The notes under the pieces are model-generated. The model did no database searches, was not told where the DNA came from, and worked only from the letters and a program-made list of their open reading frames with translations. A DNA stretch of 24,000 bases from Thiogranum sp. (GTDB lineage: Bacteria > Pseudomonadota > Gammaproteobacteria > DSM-19610): NCBI GenBank assembly GCA_032251035.1, contig JAVVEV010000023.1, positions 7,545 through 31,544 on the forward strand, written 5' to 3'. A program made the position numbers and the translations under genes. Below are positions 6,932-24,000 of the stretch, one piece after another. Within the stretch, counting starts at the first letter, position 1. Every line of letters starts with the position of its first letter.

Positions 6932-7461
6932 GGACAGCCAGCGTGAAATTGCAGGTCAATGACAATATCGCAACCCTGCAACAGGGTGCCAGGTTACTGC
7001 AGTGTATCGATGACGACCTGTACCGGCGCCGCATCGAAAATGTTTTCGCCACTTCCATCGGTGCTCACGTGCGCCACAACCTGGGGCATTACAGAATTTT
7101 TCTCGACGCGCTTGAAACCGGTGACATCGACTACAGCGCACGCTGCCGTGATGCCGCGATTGAAGTCGATCGCACCGCCGCACTGACTGAAACCGCCAAC
7201 ATCTGCGGACAGTTGCACGGAGTATCCATACTGCGCCAGGACCTGCAATTACAGATTCGCAACAGCCGCGGCGACGCCTGCGCAACGACATCGACCTGCG
7301 TCTCCCGCGAACTTGAATTCCTCCTCGGCCACACCATTCATCATTACGCAATTATTGCGATCATCTGCCGTCTGCAGGACGTGGCGCTCGAGGAAGGCTT
7401 CGGCGTGGCGCCATCCACTCTCTGTCACCTGGAATCATTGAAATCCGCATGTGTACGCTGA
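6928..7461 (+). CDS. DinB/YfiT-like four-helix-bundle metalloprotein (tentative)
   Basis: 177 aa. Its ATG overlaps the upstream stop (ATGA). The His-rich motifs GAHVRHNLGHY and LLGHTIHHYAII sit at the positions expected for a DinB_2-type His triad. The fold call is from motif memory only. Confidence 0.45.
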   Translation: MRTASVKLQVNDNIATLQQGARLLQCIDDDLYRRRIENVFATSIGAHVRHNLGHYRIFLDALETGDIDYSARCRDAAIEVDRTAALTETANICGQLHGVSILRQDLQLQIRNSRGDACATTSTCVSRELEFLLGHTIHHYAIIAIICRLQDVALEEGFGVAPSTLCHLESLKSACVR

Positions 7462-8195
7462 GCTGGAAGCCGATCGACGACGGTTATGTACTGATGTTCA
7501 ATCGTGATGAACAACGCTCGCGGACGCCGGCACTGCCACCCGATTTCGGACAGGTCGGCAGCGTGATGTTCCTGGCGCCGACCGATCCCCAACACGGCGG
7601 CACCTGGCTGCTGGTCAACGAATTCGGTGTAAGCGTTGCGCTGCTGAATCACTATCCCGAACCGATTCCGTCGTACCATGTGAATGCACCTTCGCGCGGC
7701 CTGCTGACAGTAGCGTGCGCCGATTGTCACAGTGTCGATACGCTCGTTAGCCGCGTACCTGGAATCGTGCCCACACCCTACGCGCCGTTCCGGCTCGTCG
7801 CGGTCGATCTGACCGGGGCAGTAGAGATTATCTGGGATGGGCGCACCCTGACATCCTCCCGCCTGCCGCTGCAAGGCGGCATGCTGACTTCGTCTTCGGT
7901 GCGATCGCAAGAAATTGAAGCCGCCCGTCGCGGCACCTTCGAACAGCTTGTCGGAGCAATCGAAGCAGCCACTGTCGCGCAGCTGGCACAATTCCATCAC
8001 CACACTGCCGCCGACGGCGCCAAGGGTATCCGCATGTCGCGCTCCGACGCGTGTACCCACAGCATCGCAACGATAACCGTGTCTGCAAAAACCGGGGCGG
8101 CCGCAATGGACTACCAGGCGCTGCTACCTGCGGATCCACAAGCCTGCGTCACGGTGATGAGACTGCCGCTGCAAGCGGGCAGCGCTCTGCCATGA
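7449..8195 (+). CDS. NRDE-family protein (TANGO2 homolog), Ntn-hydrolase-like with N-terminal Cys
   Basis: 248 aa beginning MCTLSW...LMFNRDE, the defining Met-Cys start and NRDE motif of PF05742. It overlaps the upstream gene by 13 nt. Confidence 0.75.
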   Translation: MCTLSWKPIDDGYVLMFNRDEQRSRTPALPPDFGQVGSVMFLAPTDPQHGGTWLLVNEFGVSVALLNHYPEPIPSYHVNAPSRGLLTVACADCHSVDTLVSRVPGIVPTPYAPFRLVAVDLTGAVEIIWDGRTLTSSRLPLQGGMLTSSSVRSQEIEAARRGTFEQLVGAIEAATVAQLAQFHHHTAADGAKGIRMSRSDACTHSIATITVSAKTGAAAMDYQALLPADPQACVTVMRLPLQAGSALP

Positions 8196-8971
8196 ACACG
8201 CCGACTCGCCCTTTCAACCAGCCCGTCAGCCGTCTCGGTAAAGCCGTCTTTGCCTGCCTCGGCTGGATGGAACGGCATATCATCACCCACTCTCGCGTCG
8301 GCGCCACTGCATTCTTTGACACGGCGCTGTTCCCCTGGGTAGATACATTCAAATCGGACTGGCCTGCCATACTCGCCGAGGCGCAGGCCGTATTGCCCGA
8401 CCTGCAGGACCTGCCGGCATTCCAGGACATCTCTCGGGAAGTGGCGTATATCACCAATGACGACAAGTGGAAAACGTTCATGCTGCTCGGCTACGGTATA
8501 CGTTCCGAGGTCAATCTGCGCCGCTGCCCGGCCACTGCCGGCGCCTTGCGACACATTCCCGGCATACGCACTGCTTTCTTCTCCATCCTTGAACCCGGCA
8601 AGAAATTGCCGCCGCACCGCGGCCCTTATAACGGTTTGTTGCGCCTGCATCTTGGGTTGATCGTACCGACACCCGCTGAACAATGCTGGATTCGCGTCGA
8701 TTCCGAACGTCGATATTGGCAGACCGGCGAGGTGATGATTTTCGACGACGCACTGAACCACGAAGTGCACAACGATACAGATGGCCTGCGTGTTATCCTC
8801 TTTATCGACTTCCTGAGGCCTTGCCGCTGGCCCATCAATTGGCTGAACCGCCTGGTGGTCTTTATCGCGCGTTTCAGCTCGCTGGTGCGCGACGCCCAGC
8901 GCAACCAGGCGCGTTGGGAACGGGATTTCTACTCGCGTCCACCGAAACCAGTCGGCAAGATCATCGACTGA
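8192..8971 (+). CDS. Aspartyl/asparaginyl beta-hydroxylase family Fe(II)/2-OG dioxygenase (LpxO/OlsC-like lipid hydroxylase)
   Basis: The motifs LPPHRGPYNGLLRLHLGLIVP and MIFDDALNHEVHN are typical of the LpxO/OlsC family. I moved the start to the ATG at 8192 (MNTPTRPF), which overlaps the NRDE stop (ATGA). The track start at 8051 lies inside the NRDE gene. Confidence 0.75.
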   Translation: MNTPTRPFNQPVSRLGKAVFACLGWMERHIITHSRVGATAFFDTALFPWVDTFKSDWPAILAEAQAVLPDLQDLPAFQDISREVAYITNDDKWKTFMLLGYGIRSEVNLRRCPATAGALRHIPGIRTAFFSILEPGKKLPPHRGPYNGLLRLHLGLIVPTPAEQCWIRVDSERRYWQTGEVMIFDDALNHEVHNDTDGLRVILFIDFLRPCRWPINWLNRLVVFIARFSSLVRDAQRNQARWERDFYSRPPKPVGKIID

Positions 8972-11065: not shown

Positions 11066-11680
11066 ATGGGTGAAGCAGCCGACAACTCCGCCTTCCCGGA
11101 ACCGGATCCCGGGCGCTGGCTGCAGGATTATGGCGATGTGCTGTATCGCTACGCGCTGCAGCGTCTGCGCGACTCCGCACACGCCGAAGATCTGGTGCAG
11201 GAGACGCTGCTGGCGGCGTTTCAGGCGCGCGCAAGCTACTCCGGCCGTTCTTCCGAGAAGACCTGGCTCATCGGCATTCTCAAGCACAAGGTGGTTGATT
11301 TCATTCGCACGCAGGTGCGCGAGTCGACCGTGGATGACATCAGCGCCTTGTCGGACAAGGGAGTGGAACATGATATCGACGACCTGTTCGACGCACGCGG
11401 CTTCTGGGTGCGCCCGCCAAGGGATTGGGGGAATCCGGACGCGGCACTGCATAACGATGAGTTTCTTGCCGCCTTCGAAGCGTGCCTGGCGCGTCTGAAG
11501 CCCGCTCTTGCCCAGGTCTTCGCTCTAAAGGAACTCGTCGGCCAGTCCAGCGAAGAGATCTGCAGGGAACTCGGGATTTCGACCACCAACTGTGGCGTAA
11601 TGCTATATCGCGCCCGCATGGGGCTGAGGCGCTGTCTCGATGTGCAGTGGCCCGGCGGCAATTCCAAAGGCACAAAATAA
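11066..11680 (+). CDS. ECF (group IV) sigma-70 family RNA polymerase sigma factor
   Basis: The sigma-2 region is LYRYALQRLRDSAHAEDLVQETLLAAF...WLIGILKHKVVDFIR. The sigma-4 HTH is SSEEICRELGISTTNCGVMLYRARMGLR. I moved the start to the ATG at 11066 (MGEAADNS). The track start at 10922 adds 48 Arg-rich residues. Confidence 0.85.
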   Translation: MGEAADNSAFPEPDPGRWLQDYGDVLYRYALQRLRDSAHAEDLVQETLLAAFQARASYSGRSSEKTWLIGILKHKVVDFIRTQVRESTVDDISALSDKGVEHDIDDLFDARGFWVRPPRDWGNPDAALHNDEFLAAFEACLARLKPALAQVFALKELVGQSSEEICRELGISTTNCGVMLYRARMGLRRCLDVQWPGGNSKGTK

Positions 11681-11952
11681 TGCGGTCATGTAAAGACATT
11701 TCTTTTCTCGTATCGCAGTCACTGGACCGGAAACTTGCGTTGCGCGAGCGGCTGGGCCTGCACCTGCACCTGATGATGTGCAACGCCTGTCGGTGTATGG
11801 CAGATCAGATGAAGCTATTACAGGCTGCCTCTCTACACTATCAGATTACCGAGGGACTCGAGTCCCACTCGGCGCAACAGGCGCTTTCGAGGGAAGCAAG
11901 CGACCGCATTCTCGCGCGACTGCAGCAGGCTGCTCGCGAACGTTCCGATTAG
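11680..11952 (+). CDS. Small soluble zinc-binding anti-sigma factor (zf-HC2 / ZAS)
   Basis: 90 aa. Its ATG overlaps the sigma stop (TAATG). It has an H30-x3-C34-x2-C37 motif (HLMMCNAC) plus Cys4 located 26 residues before the His. I see no hydrophobic transmembrane stretch. Confidence 0.7.
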   Translation: MRSCKDISFLVSQSLDRKLALRERLGLHLHLMMCNACRCMADQMKLLQAASLHYQITEGLESHSAQQALSREASDRILARLQQAARERSD

Positions 11953-12172: not shown

Positions 12173-12760
12173 ATGCGCGGTCCAGCCTTTTTTATGTTAA
12201 TGATGCTCGCGTTCGCCGGCGTTGCAGCTACACCGGCACCTGAACAGCTTATTCGTGAACAGGCCGGAAACCTGCTTGCACACATCGCCGTTGAGCAAGA
12301 TGGCGAGAACCTGGAAAACCTGGTTGCAGAGATCATCGCGCCTCATGTGGATTTTGAGCTGTTCTCGAAACTGGTACTGGGCAAGCACCGGCGCTCGCTT
12401 TCGGCCGCCCAGCAACAGCGTTTCAGGAACGGAATGACGCACCTGGTGATAAAAACCTACGCGACGGCGTTGTCGGGCACATCCAAACTGGAGATCGAAT
12501 ACCAGGGTCTACAAGAGAACAAGAACCCCGACCGGGTGGTTGTGCTTACCGTGGTGAGCTCGTCAGGCAACCCACCTGTCAGAATCGATTACAAGCTGCA
12601 CCGGAGGGACAACATATGGAAAGTCTACGATGTCGCGATCGAGGGCGTCAGCATGGCCATTAATTACCGTACCGTCATAGCAGAACGGAGCAGCCTGGAA
12701 GGTATAGACGCCGCTATCGACAGTTTGTCGGAACGACCGGTTACACTGGCTGCGCAATAA
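12173..12760 (+). CDS. MlaC/Ttg2D-family periplasmic lipid-binding protein
   Basis: 195 aa with a signal-like N-terminus. The C-terminal WKVYDVAIEGVSMAINYR is characteristic of the MlaC family. No other mla genes are adjacent. Confidence 0.65.
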   Translation: MRGPAFFMLMMLAFAGVAATPAPEQLIREQAGNLLAHIAVEQDGENLENLVAEIIAPHVDFELFSKLVLGKHRRSLSAAQQQRFRNGMTHLVIKTYATALSGTSKLEIEYQGLQENKNPDRVVVLTVVSSSGNPPVRIDYKLHRRDNIWKVYDVAIEGVSMAINYRTVIAERSSLEGIDAAIDSLSERPVTLAAQ

Positions 12761-12864: not shown

Positions 12865-13710
12865 ATGAATCAAAATATCGGACGTTTTACCGATCGCGCC
12901 GCCTTACTGCTTCTTGCACCTCTAATCCTGAACGCGTCACTGGTTGTCGCGGAATCGGACGTTTATCGCAATCCTGTCGGTATGGAATTTCTTGAAATTC
13001 CCGCCGGCAGTTTCATTATGGGCACGCCGGATCTGGATGAAGCCATTGCCGAAAATCCGGACGGTCAGATCGATACGGTACGTGACGAACACCCCCCGCA
13101 TACAGTCACCTTCGCCACACCCTTTTATCTTGGCGCTACCGAGGTCACACAAGGCCAGTGGTTAGAGATTATGGACACCAGACCGGGGCCGGAAGCCTAT
13201 TGGTCGGACAGCGACTGGCAGCGCCTTCCGGTCGTCTCGGTAAGCTGGCACGACGCGCAACGATTCATTCAGCGTTTGCAGGTCCGCGACCCGAAAACAC
13301 GCTATCGACTGCCGACCGAAGCCGAATGGGAATACGCGGCGCGTGCCGGCACCCAGGGCCTGCGCCCGATGACAGTCCAGGCATTGCCTGAACAGGCCTG
13401 GTACATCAGGAATTCCGGCGACGTCCCGCATCCCGTTGCGGGCCGCGCGGCGAGTTCCTGGGGTTTGTACGACATGCTGGGAAATGTCTGGGAATGGACG
13501 CAGGACCGATATGCGCCGGATTACTACGCCCGCGCTGCGGATACTGACCCGCAGGGGCCGGCAACCGGCGACAAGCGTGTCCGTCGCGGCGGTTCCTATC
13601 ATTGTCCGCTGCACATGGTCCGGCCTGGCTACCGTTCCGCCGATGATCCTGATGCTGCATACTCCGTGATAGGCTTCCGCCTGGTCGCCGTACCGGATGA
13701 GCGCAGCTGA
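12865..13710 (+). CDS. Secreted FGE-sulfatase-fold protein (SUMF1/EgtB/PvdO family), probably not a true formylglycine-generating enzyme
   Basis: 281 aa with a signal-like N-terminus. Motifs are RLPTEAEWEYAARAG, GNVWEWTQD, RRGGSY and IGFRLV. Only one Cys sits in the RGGSYHCPLHMV segment where canonical FGEs carry a C-x4-C pair. Confidence 0.8.
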   Translation: MNQNIGRFTDRAALLLLAPLILNASLVVAESDVYRNPVGMEFLEIPAGSFIMGTPDLDEAIAENPDGQIDTVRDEHPPHTVTFATPFYLGATEVTQGQWLEIMDTRPGPEAYWSDSDWQRLPVVSVSWHDAQRFIQRLQVRDPKTRYRLPTEAEWEYAARAGTQGLRPMTVQALPEQAWYIRNSGDVPHPVAGRAASSWGLYDMLGNVWEWTQDRYAPDYYARAADTDPQGPATGDKRVRRGGSYHCPLHMVRPGYRSADDPDAAYSVIGFRLVAVPDERS

Positions 13711-13745: not shown

Positions 13746-15461
13746 TTACAGCACCGCGGGAAGTATTCTCGATAATGCGGGGCCACTCCGGATGAGCTGC
13801 TGAAAAGCAGCCGGGCCGACAGGCCGGCTGAACAAAAATCCCTGGGCTTCATCGCACCCGGCTTCTCGCAAAAACGCGTATTGCCCCTGCGATTCGATGC
13901 CCTCGGCGATCACCTGCATCCCGAGGCTGTGCCCGAGTTCGATAATGGAGCGCACAAGGATCGCGTCGCCGGACTCCCGCTCTACGTTGCTCACGAATGA
14001 CCGATCGATCTTGAGCCTCTCCAGAGGAAACTGCCGCAAATAGGCGAGCGAAGAGTAGCCGGTCCCGAAGTCGTCCAGCGCGATACCGACACCCAGCGCC
14101 TTGAGCTCCCGCAACTGGTCGATCGAATGAGGCACATCGTCCATCGCGAGGCTCTCGGTAACTTCCACTTCCAGGTACTGTGGCGGCAGGCCTGACTGTT
14201 CCAGCGTCTCGGCGATGGTCCTGATAATGTCCTTGCTGATGAATTGTCGCGCCGACAGGTTGACAGCGATGCGGATCGGCGATGCTGCTCCACGGTTCCA
14301 CGCCTGCGCCTGGAAACAGGCCTGGCGCAATATCCATTCGCCGATTGGAATAATCAGGCCCGACTCCTCTGCCAGGGGGATGAATTTCGACGGTGGCAGA
14401 AGTCCCATCACAGGATGATTCCAGCGCAGCAAAGCCTCGGCACCGATAATCGATCCCGAAGACAGCGCTACCTGCGGCTGATAAACCAGTTCCAGCTCGC
14501 CCCGCTCCAGCGCCTGCCGCAAATGGTTCTCCAGCATCAGGCGCTCTCTGGCCAGCGCCGACAATCCCGATTCATAGGCACGGAATCCACCGCCCGCGCC
14601 TTTCACCTGTTGCAATGCCTGGTCCGCGCAACTGATCAGGGAGATTGCATCCTGTCCATCGACGGGGTAACGCGAACTCCCGATGCCGGCACCCAGGAAC
14701 AGCTCATAGCCATCGACGTAGAGCGGCTCATTGAAACCGGCGACGATCTGAAGGGCCAGTTGTGATGCTGCCCCCGGCGAGCAGGGATCCTGCAACAGCA
14801 CCCCGAACACCTCACCCTCGTAGCGATACACGGACGCGGACTTCGCGGTGCCTGCGAACGCCATCACGATCTGCGCCAGGTGCCGCGACAGGACCTGGTA
14901 GAGCCTGTCGGCAATGCCGTGACCCATGCTGTCGATAATCCGTTGCGTGCGTTCGATGGTGACCAGCAGAACAGAGCCCTCTGCTGCCTTTTCTATGGCC
15001 TGCTGGATATCGGCGACGAGTCGGCGCCGGTTCGGAAGATCCGTAACCGGGTCGTGGAAGGCCATATGTTCGAGACGCCGTTCGGCCAGCACGCGCTCCG
15101 TGATATCCCGCAGATATACATGGAAGGTCCCGAAGTCCTTCAGGTGATGAACATTGGCTTCGTAATTCCGGGTGATCACAGCATACTGCCAATGGCCCCA
15201 GTCCGAATCCTGTTCAATCATGTGCTCGAGACGCCGTTTGACATCACTCGGAAGAAGCATCAGCGGAGCATCGACCGGTATGCCAAGCGCCATCATGGTC
15301 GCCCAGGCTCCGGGGTTGACGTAATCGATGCTCCCGGTGCGCGTCAACCTCAACACGGGATTCGGATTCCTTTCGACGAACATCGCAAGCCGCCGCCGTT
15401 TATGGATTCCCGAGCGGACCACTGCGAAGAACGCGGACATGACTTGAATCGCTCTCCTCAT
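13746..15461 (-). CDS. PAS-like / degenerate GGDEF / EAL c-di-GMP phosphodiesterase
   Basis: 571 aa. The GGDEF position reads YEGEVF, with no RxxD I-site. The EAL-domain motifs are intact: EALLRW, NLSARQ, EVEVTES, DDFGTGYSS, KIDRSF, EGIES, QGF. The N-terminus (FVERNPNPVLRL...YVN) looks PAS-like. Confidence 0.85.
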   Translation of the reverse strand: MRRAIQVMSAFFAVVRSGIHKRRRLAMFVERNPNPVLRLTRTGSIDYVNPGAWATMMALGIPVDAPLMLLPSDVKRRLEHMIEQDSDWGHWQYAVITRNYEANVHHLKDFGTFHVYLRDITERVLAERRLEHMAFHDPVTDLPNRRRLVADIQQAIEKAAEGSVLLVTIERTQRIIDSMGHGIADRLYQVLSRHLAQIVMAFAGTAKSASVYRYEGEVFGVLLQDPCSPGAASQLALQIVAGFNEPLYVDGYELFLGAGIGSSRYPVDGQDAISLISCADQALQQVKGAGGGFRAYESGLSALARERLMLENHLRQALERGELELVYQPQVALSSGSIIGAEALLRWNHPVMGLLPPSKFIPLAEESGLIIPIGEWILRQACFQAQAWNRGAASPIRIAVNLSARQFISKDIIRTIAETLEQSGLPPQYLEVEVTESLAMDDVPHSIDQLRELKALGVGIALDDFGTGYSSLAYLRQFPLERLKIDRSFVSNVERESGDAILVRSIIELGHSLGMQVIAEGIESQGQYAFLREAGCDEAQGFLFSRPVGPAAFQQLIRSGPALSRILPAVL

Positions 15462-15871
15462 GTCATCCGCCCGTTCGCCGGGTGTGACGGCCGGAATGCG
15501 TCGTCGAAGTGGCGGTCATGTCTTGTCCCTCATTGATTCAAATTGGCCTGCCATGGACTGTTTGCCTGTCCCGGGCGGCCGTCTGCATTTTTGTCGCGTC
15601 AACGACTGAATTCTTACGCCAAAAGCAGCCTTTTTGTAAGATTTTGCTGACGCTCTCAATGACTGAAAAACATTTGCACGCGGCAACCGGCTGGTTGATT
15701 TGCCCATGGCCTGGTGGATTTCCCCCAGCGAGTCACGGTGAACCGACCGGTCAGTCGGCCTGAAAAAGCGGCCCATGCTTCCGGGCATAGTTTCTGCATT
15801 TCTGCCGGAACAGCCGCTCCAAAGGAGCCGACCTGAAACTGGTGCTTAAACCATCAACAGGAGTGACAGCC

Positions 15872-16198
15872 ATGTCTGTGCAATCAAATACTATCTCCAG
15901 TGTTATGCTCGCCAGCGCAGTTGCGATCGCGATGTCAGCCAGCGCACCTGCCGTGGCGCAGGAAAAGGTAAAATGCTACGGAATCTCTGAAGCCGGACAG
16001 AACGATTGCAAGGCGGGACCTGGTACGACCTGTGCCGGGACCTCGACAGTAGACTACCAGGGCAACGCCTGGACTCTCGTTCCGGAAGGCGAATGTCTGA
16101 AGTATGGCGTAGCCGAGGATCAGGCGAAGTACGAGCTTCCCGGCGATCGCGTGGGCTCCCTGAAGCCGCTGGACCGGGACCTGCCCAAGAATACGTAG
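15872..16198 (+). CDS. bufA: DUF2282-type RiPP precursor (bufferin-1-like), Sec signal peptide plus 4-Cys core
   Basis: I moved the start to the ATG at 15872, with AGGAG 8 nt upstream. The predicted signal peptide ends AVA|QEKVKC. The core [28 protein letters not shown]...VPEGEC matches the DUF2282 signature (KCYG...NDC...CAG...C). It sits immediately upstream of DUF692. Confidence 0.8.
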
Positions 16199-16214
16199 CA
16201 GTCTGTCGGGACGC

Positions 16215-17102
16215 ATGGATACCGAACGGTTGGCTTCCCGATTCGAGCTTCCACTGCGGGCCGGCGTCGGCCTGAGACCGGATCATTACGAGGTCGTGCT
16301 CCGGGAGCGCCCGGATGTCAGCTGGTTCGAGGTGCACGCCGAGAATTACATGGGCGCCGGCGGGCCTGTGCTCGCCTGGCTGGAGCAAGTCCGTGCCGAC
16401 TACCCCCTTTCGATCCACGGCGTCGGGTTGTCGATCGGCTCCGATGATTCACTGGATCCGGTCCACCTGCGGCGCCTCAGGACGCTGCTGGATCGCTATC
16501 AGCCGGATTCCTTCAGCGAGCACCTGGCCTGGTCATCTCAGGGTGGCGTGTACCTCAATGATCTGCTGCCGCTGCCATACACGCGCGAGACCCTGGCTCG
16601 CGTCAGCGAACATATCGATCAGGTTCAGACCCACCTCGGACAGCGGATGCTGTTGGAGAATCCGTCAACCTACCTGAGCTTTGCCAGCAGCACGATGACG
16701 GAGATCGAGTTTCTCTCTGCGCTGGTCGAACGCACCGGCTGCGGCCTGCTGCTCGACGTCAACAATGTTTATGTCTCAGGCACCAATCAAGACTACTCGC
16801 CTCTCGATTACATCAGGGACTTTCCGCTTACCCACGTCGGCGAGATCCATCTGGCAGGTTATGCCTGCGATACGGATCAGGAGGGTCATGCCCTGCTGAT
16901 TGACGCCCACGACTGTGTCGTGGCGGTCGAGGTCTGGTCGCTGTACGCCGAGACCATCGCCCGCACAGGGCCGGCACCCACCTTGATCGAATGGGACAGC
17001 AAGCTGCCGGACTGGGAAGTTCTGGTCGGGCAGGCCAGGACAGCGGACCGGTACATGGAAGGTTACAGCCAGGGAGTCTCCGAAAATGTCGGCGTTGGCT
17101 GA
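16215..17102 (+). CDS. bufB: DUF692 multinuclear non-heme iron oxidative enzyme (MNIO, MbnB-like TIM barrel)
   Basis: 295 aa with FEVHAENY, HGVGLS, SEHLAW, LENPS, LLDVNN, EIHLAG and IEWD, which are the metal-ligand-bearing strands typical of DUF692. Confidence 0.85.
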   Translation: MDTERLASRFELPLRAGVGLRPDHYEVVLRERPDVSWFEVHAENYMGAGGPVLAWLEQVRADYPLSIHGVGLSIGSDDSLDPVHLRRLRTLLDRYQPDSFSEHLAWSSQGGVYLNDLLPLPYTRETLARVSEHIDQVQTHLGQRMLLENPSTYLSFASSTMTEIEFLSALVERTGCGLLLDVNNVYVSGTNQDYSPLDYIRDFPLTHVGEIHLAGYACDTDQEGHALLIDAHDCVVAVEVWSLYAETIARTGPAPTLIEWDSKLPDWEVLVGQARTADRYMEGYSQGVSENVGVG

Positions 17103-17874
17103 CCTGCAACGGGAATTCGCACAGGCGCTGCGCGATCCGGGCCGGCGGCAACCGTCACAGGTCTGCGGCCCGCGGCTCGCCTCGGCAGAGCGCCGCTTCA
17201 ATGTGCACAGAAACAACATGGTGGCAGGCCTGATCGAGGCGCTGCAAGCCACTTACCCCGCAGTGCACCGGTTGGTCGGAGAGGAGTACTTCTCAGCGGT
17301 GGCCAGGGCGTTCATCGGCCTGCATCCGCCGCGCTCGCCGATGCTTCTTCACTATGGAGGCGAGTTTGGAGATTTCCTGGAAGGCTTTCCGTCGGCTGCC
17401 GGAGTCCCTTACCTCGGTGACGTCGCCCGGCTCGAGTGGGCGCGGACAAAGGCATTCCATGCGGCGGACGCAGAACCCATTGGCCTTTCGACATTGGCCG
17501 ACATTGCGGATAGTCGCCTGAAATATCTCACGCTGGAGCTGCATCCCTCGCTGACGCTGCTGGATTCGCGCTGGCCAGTCGACTCCCTGTGGCGCGCCTG
17601 CTGCACGCCAGACCAGGACGCCGATGTGAACATGGATGAGCCACAGCAGGTGGCTATTGTGCGCCCCGTCTGGCAGGTGGCGATTCACGTCCTGCCCTCG
17701 CCGGCCGCCGCTTTCGCACAGCTGTTGCAGCAAGGATGGGCGCTGGGGGAGGCAACGCAGCATTGCGCCGGGTTGCACCAGGATTTCGATCTCGCCGACA
17801 GCCTGCGACGCCTGTTCGGGATTGGCGCAGTCGTCGCCGTCAAGATTCCGCAGCAGGACGAGGAGCAATCATGA
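17086..17874 (+). CDS. bufC: DUF2063 protein, MNIO partner/precursor-recognition subunit
   Basis: 262 aa. RFNVHRNNMVAGLIEALQATYPAVHRLVGEEYF...LHYGGEFGDFL...DVARLEWA is the DUF2063 N-terminal signature. It overlaps the DUF692 gene by 17 nt. AGGGAG lies 9 nt upstream. Confidence 0.75.
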   Translation: MSALADLQREFAQALRDPGRRQPSQVCGPRLASAERRFNVHRNNMVAGLIEALQATYPAVHRLVGEEYFSAVARAFIGLHPPRSPMLLHYGGEFGDFLEGFPSAAGVPYLGDVARLEWARTKAFHAADAEPIGLSTLADIADSRLKYLTLELHPSLTLLDSRWPVDSLWRACCTPDQDADVNMDEPQQVAIVRPVWQVAIHVLPSPAAAFAQLLQQGWALGEATQHCAGLHQDFDLADSLRRLFGIGAVVAVKIPQQDEEQS

Positions 17875-18452
17875 TCAAGCGAATTGCGGAACTGCATCAG
17901 CGGCTCTTTGCCGCTATCGAACGCGGTCTGGCCGACTGGTTTCCTGCCTTGCTGGCGCGGCTGATTTTCGCGGGTGTCCTGCTGGTCTACTTCCTGAACT
18001 CGGCAATGACGAAAATCGGTGAGGGGATTTTTGGGATATTCAACCTTACCGACAAGGCCTACGCTCAAATCCTGCCATCGGTAATGGAACGCCACGGCTA
18101 TGATGCCTCACAAATTTCCTTCCCCTACGATCTTGTTGTCCACCTCGGGACCTACAGCGAAATCCTGCTCCCCACGCTGATCGTGCTCGGGCTGTTCACA
18201 CGCCTCGCTGCTCTCGGAATGATTGTCTTTGTGATCGTGCAGAGCTATGTCGACATCGCATTCCACGACGTCGAGAAGGAGACTATCGGAGCCTGGTTTG
18301 ACCGCCTGCCCGACGCGGCCATCTTTGATCAAAGGGCACTATGGTTTTTTCTGCTGGCGTATCTGGTGATCTATGGGGCTGGTCGGATCTCACTGGATTA
18401 CCTGCTGCAGCGTCGCCTTGTGAACGGGACCGTTCCGGCACAGTCGACCTAG
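17871..18452 (+). CDS. DoxX-family integral membrane protein
   Basis: I moved the start to the ATG at 17871, which overlaps the DUF2063 stop (ATGA) and follows an AGGAG RBS. It has multiple hydrophobic helices and the segment SEILLPTLIVLGLFTRLAALGMIV, typical of DoxX. Confidence 0.7.
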   Translation: MIKRIAELHQRLFAAIERGLADWFPALLARLIFAGVLLVYFLNSAMTKIGEGIFGIFNLTDKAYAQILPSVMERHGYDASQISFPYDLVVHLGTYSEILLPTLIVLGLFTRLAALGMIVFVIVQSYVDIAFHDVEKETIGAWFDRLPDAAIFDQRALWFFLLAYLVIYGAGRISLDYLLQRRLVNGTVPAQST

Positions 18453-18464
18453 GATGAAACCACG

Positions 18465-18893
18465 CTAACGAAGCGAACGCATTGTGTCGAGAACGGCCAG
18501 TCGATACCCGTCGATGGCGGCGTTGATGGCGTCAACCCCGGCCTCGGACTGTCCTAGAGTATCCCAGCTCTCGGCCCAGACCGTCTTGAGCCGGTCGGCT
18601 TCACCCGGTACCGGTTCAGGGATGACCTGGCTCAGGTCGTGTATCGTGAGGATGTGCGCCCAGCCATTGCGCGGATTACCGTACTCGGGGTGCTGGTCGT
18701 AATGACTGAAAAACACCACACGCTGCAGTTCGCCTACCTGCGTCAACACCTCGAATCCAGCGGTGCGAATATTGCTGTTGAGTTCCGATTGCTGATTGCG
18801 CCAGGTGTTGTAGCCGAGGCCGGACAGGGCAACGACCAGGCTGATGATTGCGACCAGGTTGCGTCGGACTTGCTCCAGCACTGAATGGTTCAT
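18465..18893 (-). CDS. Hypothetical membrane-anchored protein
   Basis: 142-aa ORF with one N-terminal hydrophobic helix (LVAIISLVVALSGLGY). I recognise no family. It is convergent with the DoxX gene. Confidence 0.45.
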   Translation of the reverse strand: MNHSVLEQVRRNLVAIISLVVALSGLGYNTWRNQQSELNSNIRTAGFEVLTQVGELQRVVFFSHYDQHPEYGNPRNGWAHILTIHDLSQVIPEPVPGEADRLKTVWAESWDTLGQSEAGVDAINAAIDGYRLAVLDTMRSLR

Positions 18894-19071: not shown

Positions 19072-19540
19072 ATGGAATGCGAACCCGGTGACACCGTAAC
19101 CTCAATCACTCTCCCTGCAATCGACGGCTCGATCTTTGACCTCACAGTCTCAAGGGCAGACCCTTCATGTTGTCTTTCTTCCGGTTTGCCTCGTGCCCGT
19201 TCTGCAATCTGCGCGTGCACGAACTGGTGACGAAGTTCGATCAACTCCCGGAGGGATTCACCATTGTTGCCGTTTTCGATTCGCCGCTGGATAACCTTCA
19301 GCGCCACGCAGACCGGCACCATGCCCCGTTCCCGATCCTTGCCGACGAACGCGGTGACTGCTACAAGCGCTATGACATCGAACATTCCGTGACTGGCGTA
19401 TTGAAAGGCATGATTTTTCGTATGCCGAAGTTGCTGTATGGCATGTTCGCGAAAGGGTGCTTTTGTTCACGGTCGTACGGAATCTACACGCGACTTTTCT
19501 ATCCTGCCTTTCTCAACGGTGGCACTTTCCGGTGTGAATC
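19072..19540 (+). pseudogene. Peroxiredoxin-like (redoxin/AhpC-TSA fold) gene, frameshifted and 3'-degraded
   Basis: An AAGGAG RBS precedes the ATG at 19072, giving MECEPGDTVTSITLPAIDGSIFDLT in one frame. The sequence SLKGRPFMLSFFRFASCPFCNLRVHELV...APFPILADE...RMPKLL continues in another frame. A single missing base near 19141-19147 would join them. Beyond about 19455 the similarity becomes patchy, and the frame then reads without a stop through the antisense of the TA genes to 19907. The 3' boundary is approximate. Confidence 0.6.
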
Positions 19541-19806
19541 CATGGCGTGCCAAAGATCCCAGTCGCGCTGCAAGGTTCAACCAGAATTCAAAACCCGTCT
19601 TGAGCGCCTCACCCAGCGCCAGTGCCGAATCCGCACTGACCTGGCGACGCCCGTTGATCACCTCGTTAAGGCGCGCATACGTCCAGCCGAGGTGCGCGGC
19701 GAAGGGCGGTGTCAAAGCTGGTACTCATATAGCCTTTGCGAACAGGGTGGACAAGATCCGCTCTGCTCTGCGCGATGGCAATTGCTTCAAGGCGCCGGTC
19801 CTTCAT
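19467..19806 (-). pseudogene. HigA-family (XRE HTH) antitoxin-like gene, apparently frameshifted near its 5' end
   Basis: The frame from 19715 encodes ...AAHLGWTYARLNEVINGRRQVSADSALALGEALKTGFEFWLNLAA, an HTH plus the HigA-type FWLNL tail. A different frame from the ATG at 19806 carries ...LVHPV..., a possible HPGE-like N-terminus. Removing one base from the A3 run at 19714-19716 (plus strand) joins them. Alternatively it is an intact 82-aa protein from the TTG at 19715. Confidence 0.45.
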
Positions 19807-20110
19807 GGACCCACTTCGCGACAGTCAACAGTCGCTCGCTGCGCCAGACGCGGACGATCCTCACGCGCGTGGGATCGCGTCGATATATGATTCGGAACGG
19901 CGGATGAATAAGTTCACGCAGAAAAGGCTGATCGAATTCGGGCACGACCCGTCCCATATCCGGATGATTCGCCAGCGCCTGGATACGCTGGATCACCTCG
20001 TCCACCAGTCTCATTCCGACGTCCGGCACTCTTTGCTCCAGATACCAGCTCTTGACTTCCTCGAGATCGCGTAGCGCCAACTCAGTGAAGCTGATGACCG
20101 TCCTGGCCAC
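19787..20110 (-). CDS. parE: RelE/ParE-family type II toxin (ParE-like)
   Basis: 107 aa. The sequences FTELALRDLEEVKSWY...HPDMGRVVPEF...LRELIHPPFRIIYRRDPTRVRIVRVWRSERLL are typical ParE. It starts 4 nt after the Phd/YefM gene. Confidence 0.8.
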   Translation of the reverse strand: MARTVISFTELALRDLEEVKSWYLEQRVPDVGMRLVDEVIQRIQALANHPDMGRVVPEFDQPFLRELIHPPFRIIYRRDPTRVRIVRVWRSERLLTVAKWVHEGPAP

Positions 20111-20114
20111 GACG

Positions 20115-20384
20115 CTATTTCAGTCCGAGCCGCGTCTTCGCCTCTTTAAGCGATACCTCGCGCCCTGCCTCCAGGTCCGACAATCCTGCGACCACGGCGC
20201 GCATGAAGGCTCTTTCTTCCTCGGCTTTCTCGTAATCGCTGACGGACTGGACCACGGCGACACCCCTGCCCCGGCTGGTGAGCAGCACGGGCCGGTGGGC
20301 CTCGGTAGTGTGCTTCACCACGCGCCCTGGATTCACCTTCAGGTCCGACAGAGGAACAAGATCCTCGGAAAATTTGATGGTCAT
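20115..20384 (-). CDS. Phd/YefM-family type II antitoxin
   Basis: 89 aa. The sequences LSDLKVNPGRVVKHTTEAHRPVLLTSRGRGVAVVQSVSDYE are the typical Phd/YefM N-terminal fold. It is followed by the toxin gene. Confidence 0.8.
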   Translation of the reverse strand: MTIKFSEDLVPLSDLKVNPGRVVKHTTEAHRPVLLTSRGRGVAVVQSVSDYEKAEEERAFMRAVVAGLSDLEAGREVSLKEAKTRLGLK

Positions 20385-20759: not shown

Positions 20760-20972
20760 CTAGTCAATCTTGACTGTTCGTCGTTTGGCTGTTGCGATTT
20801 TGGGCATCGTCAGCTCCAGCACCCCGTCCTTGAACTTCGCCTTTACTTTTTCGGTGTCCACATCACTCGGAAGGGGTACTGTGCGCGCATCCAGGTTGTC
20901 CTTATCCACACCCGTCAGCTGAGGACACGAGCAGGTCTGCTGACCGCGATCTCTTTGCTTTCCTTCTTCTCT
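20760..20972 (-). pseudogene. Remnant of an Hsp20/alpha-crystallin small heat-shock gene
   Basis: There is no start codon. The frame directly following the groEL stop reads ...LTGVDKDNLDARTVPLPSDVDTEKVKAKFKDGVLELTMPKIATAKRRTVKID then stop. A PGV-D-K..L-like strand is joined directly to the C-terminal LP..VD...(I/V).A...DGVL.L..PK motif, with the middle of the alpha-crystallin domain missing. An N-terminal-like piece (EEKKESKEIAVSRPA) lies in another frame. Confidence 0.5.
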
Positions 20973-22605
20973 TCAATAACCGCCCATTCCTTCCATCCCA
21001 GGCGGCATGGGACTTTCTTTCCTGGGCGCCTTGGCGATCATGGCCTCCGTCGTAATCATCAAGCCCGCAATGGACGCGGCATTCTGCAGGGCCACGCGTA
21101 CCACTTTGGTGGGGTCAAGTATACCCATCTTGATCATGTCGCCATACTCGTTGGTCTGGGCGTTATAGCCGTAGTTCCCTGCTTGCTCCTTCACCTTGCT
21201 CAGCACCACGGATGGCTCCACACCCGCGTTAGCCACGATCTCGCGCAGCGGCTGCTCCATGGCACGCAGTACGATTTTGATGCCGACAATCCTGATCAGG
21301 ATTGTCGCCCTTGAGGCGCTGCGCCTGCACGGCCTGCATGACCCGAATCAGCGCGACGCCCCCGCCCGCGACTACGCCCTCTTCGACGGCCGCTCTTGTG
21401 GCGTGCATGGCATCTTCCACGCGATCCTTTTTCTCCTTCATCGCCGTTTCCGTCGCGGCGCCGACCTTGAGTTCGGCGACGCCGCCGACGAGCTTCGCGA
21501 GTCGTTCCTGAAGTTTCTCTTTGTCGTAGTCCGAGGTGGCATCGTCGATCTCGCGACGGATCTGCTTGATGCGCGCCTGGATCGCTTCGGGCGCGCCAGC
21601 CCCACCGATCAATGTGGTGGTGTCTTTCGTGACAATGATCTTACGGGCGGAACCGAGATCATCCATGCTCGCCTTTTCCAGGCTCAGTCCGGTCTCTTCG
21701 GATATCACCTCGCCACCGGTGAGAACTGCGATATCGTGCAGCATGGACTTGCGCCGGTCCCCGAAGCCGGGTGCCTTGACGGCCGCCAACCTTATAATCC
21801 CGCGCATCGCATTGACCACCAGAGTCGCCAGCGCTTCTCCCTCGACATCCTCGGCAACGACCAGCAACGGTTTGCCGGCCTTGGCGATGGCCTCCAACAA
21901 GGACAACACATCACGGATGTTGGACAGCTTCCTGTCATAGAGCAGAAGAAGGGCATCCTCCAGTTCCGCGCTCATCTCGTCAGGCTTGTTGATGAAATAG
22001 GGTGACAGAAAGCCACGGTCGAACTGCATGCCCTCGACAACCGTCAGCTCGTTGTCCATCCCAGTGCCTTCCTCTACGGTGATAACGCCTTCCTTGCCCA
22101 CCTTGTCCATAGCCGAGGCAATCAAACCACCGATCTCCTCGTCACCGTTAGCCGAAACTGTCCCCACCTGCGCGATCGCCTTGCTGTCCTTGCATGAAAC
22201 CGAAATCCGTTTCAGTTCTTCCACCGTGGCGTCGACGGCTTTGTCGATGCCGCGTTTGATATCCATGGGATTCATTCCGGCCGCCACCGATTTCAATCCT
22301 TCCTGAAAAATGGATTGAGCCAGCACCGTTGCCGTGGTAGTTCCATCGCCGGCGATCTCCGAGGTCCTGGCTGCCACCTCTTTGACCATCTGCGCGCCCA
22401 TGTCTTCGAACCGGTCTTCCAGTTCGACTTCTTTGGCGACGGAGATGCCATCCTTGGTCACTACGGGAGCGCCGAACGGCCTGTGTATCACCACATTCCG
22501 CCCGCGCGGGCCCAGTGTCGCCTTGACCGCCTGTGCCAGAATCGCCGCGCCACGCGCCATGCACTGGCGGGCGTCATCCCCAAATCTCAGGTCCTTGGCT
22601 GGCAT
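20973..22605 (-). pseudogene. groEL: GroEL (Cpn60) paralog, interrupted by a +1 frameshift; no groES upstream
   Basis: The start is the ATG at 22605 ([13 protein letters not shown]) with a GGAGGTG RBS. Classic GroEL sequence runs through ...GGGVALIRV...LKGDNPDQD, then the frame is lost at plus-strand position 21288. The C-terminal part ([22 protein letters not shown]...[28 protein letters not shown]...GMEGMGGY) continues in the next frame to 20973. Total length is 1633 nt, one more than a multiple of 3. Confidence 0.8.
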
Positions 22606-22716
22606 CGGTGTCCACCTCCATTGGTAATGTTCGTCATGAGCTGTGCCGTAGACTTTTCGCCGGGTTTCGTAGTCTGTCGTCAAAACCTCATACAGATCCA
22701 GGTCTGTCAGGCTAGC

Positions 22717-23712
22717 TCAACTTTGTGTTAGCAATTCCACCAGCGACTCGCCGCGATGCACCCGCCGGATGGCCCGCGCGAACAGCGAGGCGGCATCGAG
22801 CTGGGTCAGCTTGTCACGCACAGCCGTCGATGTCAGCCGCAACGGCGGCAGGGTATCAGTCACGGCCAGGGCCTCGATGTCGGGCGTGGCCAGCACCCGA
22901 TCGGCGGCACTAGTGAACACGCCGTGGCTGGCCGCCGCCAGTACCCGCGCCGCGTCCTGGCGAATGCAGGCCTGTGCCGCCCGCGCCAGGGTGCCGCCGC
23001 TGCTGATCAGGTCATCGATGAGGATGACCTGCCGGTTCGCGACCTCGCCCACCAGCGTCTCGCCGCGCACCACACCGGCGCTGCGCTGCTTCTCCATGAA
23101 GGCCCCGCCCACCGGCCGGCCCAGGCGCTGTTCCAGTGCCTGGCGGAACAGCTCGGCCCGCTTGACGCCGCCCACGTCCGGAGACATCACCACCACCTCC
23201 TTATCGTCACCCAGGCGATTTGAAAAGTAGTCCATGAACAAGGTCCCGGCCTCCAGGTGGTCAGTCTGGATACGGAACGCGTTCTGGTAGGCCGCCAGGT
23301 TGTGGACGTCCAGGGTCATGACGCTGTCCACTCCCACCGCCTCAAACAGTGCCGCCACATAGCGGCTGGTGACGGGATCGCGTGACTTGGTCTTGCGGTC
23401 TTTGCGGGCATAGCATAAATAAGGAACCACGGCGGTCACCCGTGCCGCCGCGGCATCGCGCAGGGCACCGAGGAAGAACAGCAGCCGCACCAGCCTGTCG
23501 TTGACCGACTGCCCGGCATCGCTGTACAGCGACTGGATTACATAGACATCGCGCCCGCGCACGCTCTCCAGCGGCCGGGTCTTGTGCTCGCCGTCCTCAA
23601 ACTCCCGCTCCTCGTGCTCGCCCAGGGGTGTCTCCAGCGCTGACGCGACCCGCTCACCGAACTTGCGGTCAGCGTTCAGGGCAAACAGGACGGGTGGCGC
23701 GGGATACGGCAT
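22717..23712 (-). CDS. Ribose-phosphate pyrophosphokinase (PRPP synthetase) family protein, divergent paralog
   Basis: I moved the start to the ATG at 23712 ([10 protein letters not shown]). Motifs are [29 protein letters not shown], and the PRPP-binding loop [14 protein letters not shown]. Confidence 0.8.
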
Positions 23713-23720
23713 AACAGTAT

Positions 23721-24000
23721 TCAGGCTGCCTGTTCGCCCAGATAGCGTCCAAACCAGTTCCGCGCCAGCTCGGCCACCTCCTCCAGCTTGCCGGGTTCCT
23801 CGAACAGATGGGTGGCCCCAGGCACGATCTCCAGCCGGCATTCGCCATACAACTGCGCGGCGGCCTCCCGGTTCATCTCGATCACCGCGTGATCCAGCCC
23901 GCCGACGATCAGCAGGGTAGGCGCCTGTACCCGCGGCAGGTTATTCATTGCCAGGTCCGGCCGCCCGCCGCGTGAGACCACGGCCCTGACTACCTGGGGT
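23721..24000 (-). CDS. Alpha/beta hydrolase (dienelactone-hydrolase-like), C-terminal part; 5' end outside the window
   Basis: The frame is open to position 24000. The sequence [12 protein letters not shown]...[18 protein letters not shown]...[19 protein letters not shown] is typical of the DLH-like C-terminus with the catalytic His (GATH). Its stop lies 8 nt before the prs-like start. Confidence 0.65.

Follow-up and report, generated by a model that had tools for sequence, protein, structure and literature searches.

The uncultured Thiogranum MAG very probably carries, within the 24-kb stretch of DNA analyzed here (the window), a functional Buf1-type (DUF2282) bufferin operon, bufABCD. Its gene content, coupling, family membership, cysteine pattern, iron ligands and BufC fold were established by comparison of sequences and structures, and its thiooxazole chemistry, the identity of the modified cysteines, export, copper binding and physiological role would be those expected by analogy with Caulobacter and other characterized systems.

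Bufferins, also called captophorins, are small exported peptides with cysteines that enzymes turn into copper-binding rings. They are found in thousands of bacteria, and their genes were elucidated in 2024–2026. The core of a bufferin BGC comprises the genes for a precursor, an MNIO enzyme, a DUF2063 protein and a DoxX protein, and the 'gig' operons are bufferin BGCs (PMC12452194). The first-pass annotation had read the locus as a new member of the bufferin/gig RiPP class. This assignment stands in that the gene quartet is the published core and the cysteine spacing of the precursor is that of Caulobacter BufA1, but DoxX counts as an accessory component only. The cluster is an ordinary one and no new kind of system: its class, chemistry and gene core are already published, and the family is one of the most abundant among RiPPs. 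It thus contributes little as a further bufferin cluster.

Gene architecture and family assignments

All four open reading frames of the first-pass annotation were recovered on the + strand between positions 15872 and 18452 and are indeed co-directional and tightly packed. They are bufA (15872–16198), encoding a 108-aa precursor, bufB (16215–17102), encoding a 295-aa MNIO enzyme of the family formerly called DUF692, bufC (17086–17874), encoding a 262-aa MNIO partner with DUF2063/HvfC_N at its N-terminus and an RRE-like domain at its C-terminus, and bufD (17871–18452), encoding a 193-aa divergent long-form DoxX-family membrane protein. An AGGAG ribosome-binding site (15859–15863, + strand) lies 8 nt before the bufA ATG, and 16 nt separate bufA from bufB. 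The bufC ATG lies 17 nt ahead of the bufB stop, which reproduces the 17-nt overlap described earlier, and the bufC stop and the bufD ATG overlap as ATGA, which we read directly in the sequence. A promoter/terminator scan found no terminator-like site on the + strand inside the operon or after bufD. The families named in the first-pass annotation (DUF2282, DUF692, DUF2063 and DoxX) were each recovered by HMM searches.

BufA is 100% identical to the 108-aa NCBI entry 'DUF2282 domain-containing protein [Thiogranum sp.]', which has the same start, and this start site is homologous to that of its relatives. An in-frame GTG at 15842 would extend the N-terminus by 10 residues. Residues 32–78 match Pfam DUF2282/BufA1 (PF10048) with 78 bits (cut-off 22.4, E = 5e-22), and the cysteines of this precursor, which had been noted at first reading, are four in number (residues 35, 46, 54 and 75); most related loci have their 11/8/21 spacing. 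A single N-terminal hydrophobic segment (residues 7–25) followed by AVA/Q suggests, from visual inspection and hydropathy alone, a Sec signal peptide of residues 1–29 (15872–15958, + strand) and a core of residues 30–108. The n-region of this predicted signal peptide carries neither Lys nor Arg, whereas homologues read MSxKSKT and the n-region Lys missing from BufA is found in 19 of 19 aligned homologues. The calculated monoisotopic mass of the core is 8432.04 Da when unmodified and 8421.96 Da for the predicted mature form. AlphaFold2, run on BufA with a 20-sequence alignment, gave an unusable model (mean pLDDT 37.7).

BufB matches Pfam MbnB_TglH_ChrH with 351 bits and the NCBIfam equivalog MNIO_BufB (NF050167) with 384.8 bits (cut-off 310). 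Its solved relatives are 3BWW, TglH (8HCI) and MbnB. The full set of metal-binding strands attributed to this enzyme at first reading is borne out by the equivalents of the nine MbnB iron ligands, H68, H103, E148, D181, N184, H212, D230, H232 and E259, all of which are kept in BufB and invariant in 88 of 88 relatives.

BufC matches Pfam DUF2063 (PF09836) with 92 bits. A sequence search of the PDB with BufC returned no matches, and its solved relatives were found by fold search only. The AlphaFold2 model of BufC (pLDDT 89.6, pTM 0.84) has the fold of the MNIO partners TglI and NGO1945, which are its best Foldseek matches (8hci_A, E = 5e-7, TM 0.65, and 3DEE, E = 1e-4, respectively); it also weakly matches TbiB1, a lasso-peptide RRE.

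The match of BufD to Pfam DoxX (PF07681) is weak but above the threshold (29.2 bits, cut-off 23.6). BufD has four predicted transmembrane segments, supported by hydropathy, and about 1,400 homologues, which are named 'DoxX family protein'. Alignment of long-form BufD to the short-form BufD of other buf loci with hhalign gave a probability of 99.4% (E = 3e-21).

The proposed mechanism and the extended precursor tail

In Caulobacter BufA1, CysII and CysIII are converted to thiooxazoles (−4.03 Da each) and CysI and CysIV form a disulfide (PMC11626156). BufB and BufC are necessary and sufficient for modification in that system, and DoxX is dispensable for both modification and copper protection (PMC11626156); DoxX is thus an accessory gene that stands outside the demonstrated mechanism.

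By analogy, we propose the following model for the Thiogranum locus. The four buf genes would be expressed from one transcript with translational coupling. In the cytoplasm, a di- or tri-iron BufB and its peptide-binding partner BufC would oxidize Cys46 and Cys54 of BufA, each in a four-electron reaction that yields a 5-thiooxazole heterocycle. The modified precursor would then be exported by the Sec pathway via its N-terminal signal peptide and cleaved after Ala29, and a Cys35–Cys75 disulfide would form in the periplasm. The resulting 79-residue folded product would chelate excess Cu(I)/Cu(II) in the periplasm and buffer copper stress, with BufD serving as a putative four-transmembrane DoxX-like accessory factor.

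The C-terminal tail of the precursor (residues 76–108; 16097–16195, + strand) has hardly any overlap with the Pfam match, follows the consensus KYGV…LPGDRxGSLxPLDRDLP and marks a subfamily; its positions that are invariant in 20 homologues include K77, Y78, G79, A85, L89, P90, R93, G95, L97, R102, D103 and P105. The extended tail co-occurs with long-form BufD, which has two strongly conserved insertions in loops 45–85 and 131–156, both predicted to be periplasmic. A periplasmic YHS-domain gene adjoins the cluster in 27 related loci of the same subfamily and is absent at the Thiogranum locus. We also considered the tail as a module found outside BufA and rejected this: when 1.84 billion representatives were searched with the 33-residue tail (phmmer), the matches were one truncated BufA and a spurious match to a YELP-repeat surface protein.

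Judged by the tail and the two extra, predicted-periplasmic BufD loop insertions, the locus apparently belongs to an undescribed subfamily. A rather unlikely extension of this reading is that this distinct bufferin subfamily uses the tail, the long-BufD loops and the YHS protein as an interacting periplasmic module, in which the bufferin would attach to BufD by its tail so that the bound metal could be loaded, unloaded or redox-cycled. If such a docking module existed, it would offer a function that could be tested for the DoxX component, the role of which is unexplained in every characterized system. The locus is of modest value, as a clean example of a subfamily that combines an extended tail with an enlarged DoxX and often a YHS protein, and this subfamily could serve as an entry point to the DoxX protein, the one open component of bufferin systems.

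The same enzymology might also serve another job, in which the thiooxazole peptide would handle not copper but another thiophilic metal (Au, Ag, Hg or Zn) or redox or sulfur stress, and a subfamily-specific module would consist of the tail, the long DoxX and the YHS protein that relatives have. We consider this unlikely. The subfamily departs from the Caulobacter type in its tail, its form of DoxX and its regulation, the host genus Thiogranum is a sulfur oxidizer, and DoxX homologues are protective under oxidative or sulfur stress elsewhere, but the ligand-forming cysteines are unchanged and the YHS domains present in relatives are usually tied to copper or other metal handling. Furthermore, although the 'gig' operons are named for gold induction and authors have suggested roles that go beyond copper, MerC-bufferin fusions included (PMC12452194), copper binding and induction by copper stress hold for all characterized members (PMC11626156, PMC13097082). 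Copper buffering by a Buf1-type bufferin is the reading that we carry forward.

Regulation and genomic setting

A family scan of the window ORFs found neither SigF nor NrsF (DUF1109) beside the operon. The region upstream of bufA lacks the SigF-type promoter GTAACC-N16-CGAA, which 14 related short-tail loci have at −76 to −106, and a promoter scan of the same region found no sigma-70 consensus promoter. In this host, expression of the operon and its response to copper are thus unsupported. An Rfam scan of the whole window gave no matches.

When the 410 nt upstream of bufA were subjected to phylogenetic footprinting, the only shared feature was a direct repeat with 20-nt spacing, common to this locus and one relative; as a single blastn HSP it was not significant (E ≥ 0.13). 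The repeat (15692–15724, + strand), read from the sequence, is a low-confidence regulatory candidate. Its copies, GGTTGATTTGCCC (15692–15704) and GGTGGATTTCCCC (15712–15724), match at 11 of 13 positions, are 20 nt apart from start to start and lie 158–178 nt upstream of the bufA ATG. The closest relative (L082/L083) displays the motifs GTGGATTTC and GTTGATTTC upstream of bufA at the same 20-nt spacing, next to a different upstream neighbor (a GH15 glycosidase there, a GGDEF-EAL gene here). The repeat was missed by an automated repeat search and is absent from the other relatives.

The only ECF sigma factor in the window (11066–11680) belongs to TIGR02943, has a ZAS anti-sigma factor as its partner and lies 4 kb upstream of the operon. 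In one relative (L088), a ZAS homologue immediately precedes bufA, and in another (L087) a zf-HC2 gene lies downstream; the remaining related loci, scanned with flanks of up to 6 kb, have no ZAS match, and ECF matches (about 26–34% identity) in these loci occur only beside seven short-tail loci. The link between the ECF/ZAS pair and buf is consequently weak, and we do not retain the pair as the buf regulator. An ECF-type promoter, GGAAC-N17-CGAC, 65 nt upstream of bufA was also rejected, as the window contains 7 matches to it compared with 5.4 expected by chance; the element upstream of the ECF sigma gene itself reads GGAAC-N18-GTC. The locus also shows that bufferin operons can occur without SigF/NrsF control, here in a sulfur oxidizer that is chemolithoautotrophic, which makes the inducing signal a real question for the Thiogranum lineage.

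Among 81 related loci from many species, BufA stands beside BufB in 80 and BufC is present in 80; the genes that flank them are not conserved along with them. Precursor homologues number at least about 8,000 and BufB relatives at least 527 in a one-genome-per-species collection; Gadgil et al. categorized 21,424 precursors (PMC13097082). A family scan of the ORFs in the 24-kb window found no further copper-resistance gene.

It is highly unlikely that the operon is a silent or decaying horizontally acquired cassette, with intact genes that are unexpressed or non-functional in this host. Such a history would be in keeping with flanking genes that are not conserved with the buf genes and differ even in the closest relative, a GC content slightly above that of the neighboring sequence, the toxin-antitoxin genes and the broken groEL and peroxiredoxin genes just downstream, the loss of the n-region lysines from the signal peptide and the lack of a recognizable promoter upstream of bufA. 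However, none of the four ORFs is shortened, the catalytic ligands and the four cysteines are all intact, and the ribosome-binding sites and gene overlaps are preserved. As the frameshifted genes lie 1–3 kb downstream in an uncultured MAG, they may be assembly errors, and the four buf ORFs are free of such breaks. A functional bufABCD operon remains the preferred interpretation.

Comparison with known systems

BufB scores below the NCBIfam cut-offs of HvfB (227, cut-off 360), MbnB (55.8 bits, cut-off 325), ApyH and ChrH, and the matches to HvfC (60, cut-off 142) and HvfX (34.5, cut-off 80) also fall short; BufD has, in addition, a borderline DoxD match of 23.5 bits. Despite these sub-threshold matches, a different MNIO RiPP system (oxazolin/Hvf-type, methanobactin-like or TglHI-like), or a BufD that is an unrelated DoxD subunit, is hardly credible, because (i) the former is refuted by family scores far below those cut-offs, with BufB passing its own, and by a DUF2282 precursor that is neither an EGKCG repeat nor a leader-core MbnA, and (ii) a DoxD subunit of thiosulfate:quinone oxidoreductase is rejected by the translational coupling of bufD to bufC, by its homology to BufD of non-sulfur bacteria and by the lack of a DoxA family match among the window ORFs scanned.

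The closest known system is buf1ABCD of Caulobacter vibrioides (CCNA_03363–03366; Leprevost et al. 2024, PMC11626156), which agrees with the Thiogranum locus in its four gene families and their order and likewise encodes a signal-peptide precursor (the signal peptide being a prediction in our case), an MNIO of the BufB type and a partner from the DUF2063 family. The core cysteines of Caulobacter BufA1 (Cys12/23/31/52) have the identical 11/8/21 spacing, and a Lys follows CysII in both precursors. The two systems differ in the stretch after CysIV (33 residues with strong conservation here, 16 in Caulobacter), in the form of BufD, which is long and carries two loop insertions here, in the regulatory elements, as no sigF/nrsF genes adjoin the operon here and the GTAACC-N16-CGAA promoter is absent, and in the host, a gammaproteobacterial sulfur oxidizer. 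The 'gig' operons of Cupriavidus metallidurans and Legionella have, according to the literature (PMC12452194), the same gene composition, a likeness drawn from their description; unlike the Thiogranum locus, they have a known Au/Cu induction.

The EGKCG captophorins (oxazolin of Haemophilus influenzae HvfA-C, fontiphorin and gonophorin; PMC13097082, PMC11252979) share with the Thiogranum locus the MNIO, the DUF2063 partner (PME1) and, often, DoxX. Their precursors carry signal peptides, and they form 5-thiooxazoles and bind copper, a chemistry that BufA would share by analogy. The EGKCG precursors are, however, unstructured EGKCG repeats, none of which occur in BufA, the core of which is a folded DUF2282 domain.

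More distant are two systems that employ the same enzyme fold. The methanobactin system MbnABC has a homologous MNIO fold with the same nine iron ligands, and it likewise converts Cys to a copper-binding heterocycle. In contrast to the Thiogranum locus, it uses a leader-core precursor without a Sec signal and the partner MbnC to produce an oxazolone-thioamide, which is secreted for copper acquisition rather than used for periplasmic buffering; the window ORFs scanned contain no match to the MbnC or MbnA families. TglHI of Pseudomonas syringae (PDB 8HCI) supplies the best structural match of BufC (TglI, TM 0.65) and the second-best solved sequence relative of BufB (TglH), but at a sequence identity of 14–15%, and it excises the Cys β-carbon of a different precursor to give 2-mercaptoglycine.

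The buf operon and its products

The six-frame ORF list places the four co-directional, tightly packed genes described in the first-pass annotation at exactly the positions claimed on the plus strand: bufA (15872–16198, 108 amino acids counted from the ATG), bufB (16215–17102, 295 amino acids), bufC (17086–17874, 262 amino acids) and bufD (17871–18452, 193 amino acids). The junctions also read as described. AGGAG lies 8 nt upstream of the bufA ATG, the bufC ATG lies 17 nt ahead of the bufB TGA, and the bufC stop and bufD start share an ATGA, with GAGGAG preceding the bufD ATG. Twelve nucleotides separate the bufD stop from that of a convergent 142-amino-acid ORF (18465–18893, minus strand), whose product has one N-terminal transmembrane segment and no Pfam or NCBIfam match. 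No terminator-like site was found on the plus strand within or after the operon.

The HMM searches that had been proposed matched all four proteins to the expected Pfam families: DUF2282/BufA1 for BufA (78 bits, cut-off 22.4), MbnB_TglH_ChrH (formerly DUF692) for BufB (351 bits), DUF2063 for BufC (92 bits) and DoxX for BufD (29.2 bits, cut-off 23.6; the DoxD match is borderline). NCBIfam, which is more specific for these proteins, assigns BufB to the MNIO_BufB equivalog (384.8 bits, cut-off 310); its scores for HvfB (227 versus 360), ApyH, MbnB and ChrH fall far short of the cut-offs. The matches of BufC to HvfC and of BufD to HvfX are sub-threshold only. Every queried protein has an identical counterpart at NCBI in a Thiogranum sp. 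MAG (Ectothiorhodospiraceae, Gammaproteobacteria), and the names given there are ‘DUF2282 domain-containing protein’, ‘DNA-binding domain-containing protein’ and ‘DoxX family protein’.

The claim of a 108-amino-acid Cys-containing precursor with a Sec-type signal peptide stands for the ORF and its four cysteines (residues 35, 46, 54 and 75), the 11/8/21 spacing of which is identical to that of the Caulobacter BufA1 core (Cys 12, 23, 31 and 52) and is retained in nearly all related loci examined. MS and NMR located −4.03 Da thiooxazoles on CysII and CysIII of Caulobacter BufA1 and a disulfide between CysI and CysIV; CysII is followed by Lys in that protein (PMC11626156), as is Cys46 (by Lys47) in the window. 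The core (residues 30–108) has a calculated monoisotopic mass of 8432.04 Da, with 8421.96 Da expected after maturation. For the putative signal peptide, hydropathy reveals a single hydrophobic segment (residues 7–25) followed by AVA|Q, both judged by eye, and in the n-region the two Lys of 19/19 aligned homologues (MSxKSKT) are replaced by Gln and Asn, leaving it without Lys. An in-frame GTG at 15842 would give a Lys-containing N-terminal extension; the ATG is preferred because ribosome-binding site and homology both favour it.

BufB aligns with the solved MNIOs 3BWW, TglH (8HCI) and several MbnBs. Alignment coordinates and motif columns map the MbnB iron ligands His54, His90, Glu133, Asp163, Asn166, His192, Asp208, His210 and Glu239 (PMC9060507) onto H68, H103, E148, D181, N184, H212, D230, H232 and E259 of BufB, all nine of which are invariant in 88/88 aligned relatives, in agreement with the earlier description of a DUF692 enzyme with conserved metal-binding strands. 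A sequence search of the PDB with BufC gave no match. The best Foldseek match of its confident AlphaFold2 model (46-sequence alignment, pLDDT 89.6, pTM 0.84) is TglI, which partners the MNIO TglH (8hci_A, E = 5e-7, TM 0.65), followed by NGO1945 (3DEE, E = 1e-4), a PME1-type MNIO partner (PMC13097082), and, more weakly, the lasso-peptide RRE TbiB1. These matches make ‘putative DNA-binding domain’, the old Pfam name, a misleading label for BufC.

Precursor tail, long DoxX and YHS gene

The window BufA has 33 residues after CysIV, compared to 16 in Caulobacter BufA1. This tail, which lies almost entirely beyond the Pfam match (residues 32–78), shows stronger conservation than the signal peptide, with a consensus beginning KYGVEE and many positions that do not vary among 20 gamma- and alphaproteobacterial homologues. 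The window BufD (193 amino acids) is one of about 1,400 family members with lengths of 183–211 amino acids; a precomputed Pfam DoxX match is missing in ~40% of the 120 best matches. Profile–profile comparison relates this long form to the 143–184-amino-acid BufDs of other buf loci (99.4% probability, E = 3e-21) and places two insertions in loops 45–85 and 131–156, which are highly conserved and, from hydropathy and the positive-inside rule, are predicted to face the periplasm.

Among 74 non-redundant loci with sufficient downstream sequence, the precursor ends in [RK]DxP in all 38 of 38 loci with a long BufD, and none of the 29 tail-less precursors is accompanied by one (Fisher p = 3e-14, uncorrected for phylogeny). 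A gene for a 180-amino-acid periplasmic YHS-domain protein (7398–7940 in the related locus L001) adjoins the cluster in 27 loci, every one of which has the [RK]DxP tail. In 26 of them it directly precedes bufA, and in L056 it follows bufD. This gene is absent from the window and from its closest relative, L082. Among the papers listed by a full-text literature search, none was relevant to a YHS–bufferin association, and no mention of the long-tail subfamily or the YHS gene was found in the text of the bufferin and captophorin articles consulted. We consider it rather unlikely that tail and DoxX, with or without YHS, constitute a periplasmic module; if they did, it would supply DoxX with a function.

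Regulation and surroundings of the operon

Caulobacter buf1 is under SigF/NrsF control, with the promoter GTAACC-N16-CGAA (PMC11626156). A match to this consensus, GTAAC-N16/17-CG[AT]A, lies −76 to −106 from bufA in 14 related, mostly short-tail loci (L003, L038, L045, L052, L055, L058, L062, L065–L067, L070, L071, L075 and L078), 6 of which have a divergent adjacent ECF sigma gene. The window has neither SigF/NrsF genes at the operon nor a GTAAC-type motif upstream of bufA. GGAAC-N17-CGAC at −65 was rejected as a promoter since this pattern occurs at chance frequency; no sigma-70-like promoter was found upstream of bufA, and an Rfam scan of the window gave no family match. The sole regulatory lead is a candidate direct repeat with copies at 15692 (GGTTGATTTGCCC) and 15712 (GGTGGATTTCCCC); it recurs with the same 20-nt spacing upstream of bufA in the closest relative (L082/L083), where the upstream neighbour is a GH15 glycosidase as opposed to GGDEF-EAL in the window. 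The repeat was not found in other relatives, and as a single HSP it was not significant.

Also upstream of bufA are an inverted repeat, CCGAC-N6-GTCGG (15745–15760), and, on the minus strand, a hairpin with a T-run that resembles a terminator (15786–15771); no minus-strand gene has its end there. Other lineages have conserved upstream elements of their own. Kiloniellaceae/Pelagibius yhs-bufABCD loci (L007, L009, L016, L019, L022, L027, L033, L040, L042 and L050) share an element ~60–140 nt upstream of the yhs gene, in which the inverted repeat GTCACATTTTAGTGTAGTGAC is followed by GTGATTTGATCG-N~15-CAAATATCTCTA; it looks like an operator with a sigma-70-type promoter.

Four kb upstream of the operon, on the same strand, an ECF sigma gene (TIGR02943 family, 11066–11680), preceded by GGAAC-N18-GTC at about 10994, forms a translationally coupled pair with the gene for a short, zinc-binding anti-sigma factor (ZAS, HxxxCxxC motif, 11680–11952); genes for an MlaC-like protein (12173–12760) and a secreted FGE-sulfatase-domain protein (12865–13710) follow. 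One relative has a ZAS homologue (40% identity) just ahead of bufA, and Buf1/FGE-sulfatase fusion proteins have been mentioned (PMC12452194). Judged by the related loci, the ZAS/ECF association is not general, and any link of the 11066–13710 genes to the buf operon is conjectural.

Elsewhere, the region around 19072–20384 looks decayed or variable. A peroxiredoxin (AhpC/TSA) remnant, split between frames (19072–19230 and 19167–19907) and matching profile positions 29–104 only, is overlapped by a HigA-like antitoxin gene (19467–19715, minus); beside the latter are an unannotated 107-amino-acid ORF that may encode a toxin (19787–20110, minus) and a Phd antitoxin gene (20115–20384, minus). An Hsp20 C-terminal fragment is present at 20760–20909 (minus). 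The groEL gene (20973–22683, minus) is apparently frameshift-split: ORF 21229–22683 covers profile positions 1–434 of 524, and the C-terminal 95 amino acids, including the GMGG tail, lie in another frame (20973–21260). Upstream there is no groES and instead a gene for a Prs-like ribose-phosphate diphosphokinase (22717–23841, minus). The split reflects either pseudogene formation or an error in the MAG assembly. The plus-strand genes at 5141–8971 may form a membrane-lipid modification cluster. They encode a TANGO2-domain protein, an Asp/Asn beta-hydroxylase-like protein and a 596-amino-acid bifunctional acyltransferase/GNAT protein whose domain content resembles that of OlsF.

Relation to known bufferin systems

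Scanning a one-genome-per-species collection confirmed at least 527 BufB relatives, and a precursor search returned at least about 8,000 BufA homologues. In the best 80 loci of these BufB relatives plus one metagenomic locus, bufA is directly upstream of bufB in 80/81 and bufC directly downstream in 80/81, a BufD relative follows bufC in 55/81, and the window flanks, GGDEF-EAL (13746–15461) and the 142-amino-acid ORF, adjoin the cluster in 0/81. Because BufA and BufC accompany BufB so widely and the window flanks never do, the buf quartet is a self-contained cassette.

Precursor, MNIO, DUF2063 and DoxX are the core of bufferin BGCs, to which the ‘gig’ operons also belong (PMC12452194), and the composition originally recognized in the quartet is the published one. 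In Caulobacter, conversion of the two central Cys of Buf1 to 5-thiooxazoles requires BufB and BufC, which together suffice for it; the precursor is exported by Sec via a signal peptide that is cleaved; in the periplasm, the product binds both Cu(I) and Cu(II) and aids growth in copper stress; and neither modification nor copper protection depends on DoxX (PMC11626156). By analogy, the window BufB and BufC would convert the two central Cys of BufA to 5-thiooxazoles, the signal peptide would direct the precursor to Sec and then be cleaved, and the mature product would bind Cu(I)/Cu(II) in the periplasm and relieve copper stress; apart from gene content, conserved residues and fold, we infer this mechanism from Caulobacter.

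Families, Cys pattern, iron ligands, BufC fold and cassette conservation support the proposal of an uncharacterised member of the bufferin RiPP class. As far as sequence can tell, the locus has the features of a Buf1 bufferin BGC, the signal peptide, assessed by eye, being putative, and it does not qualify as an Hvf/oxazolin or methanobactin locus. It is a new member of a known, very common class, the Buf1 bufferin BGC, from which only its long-tail/long-DoxX(/YHS) subfamily and its non-SigF regulation set it apart.
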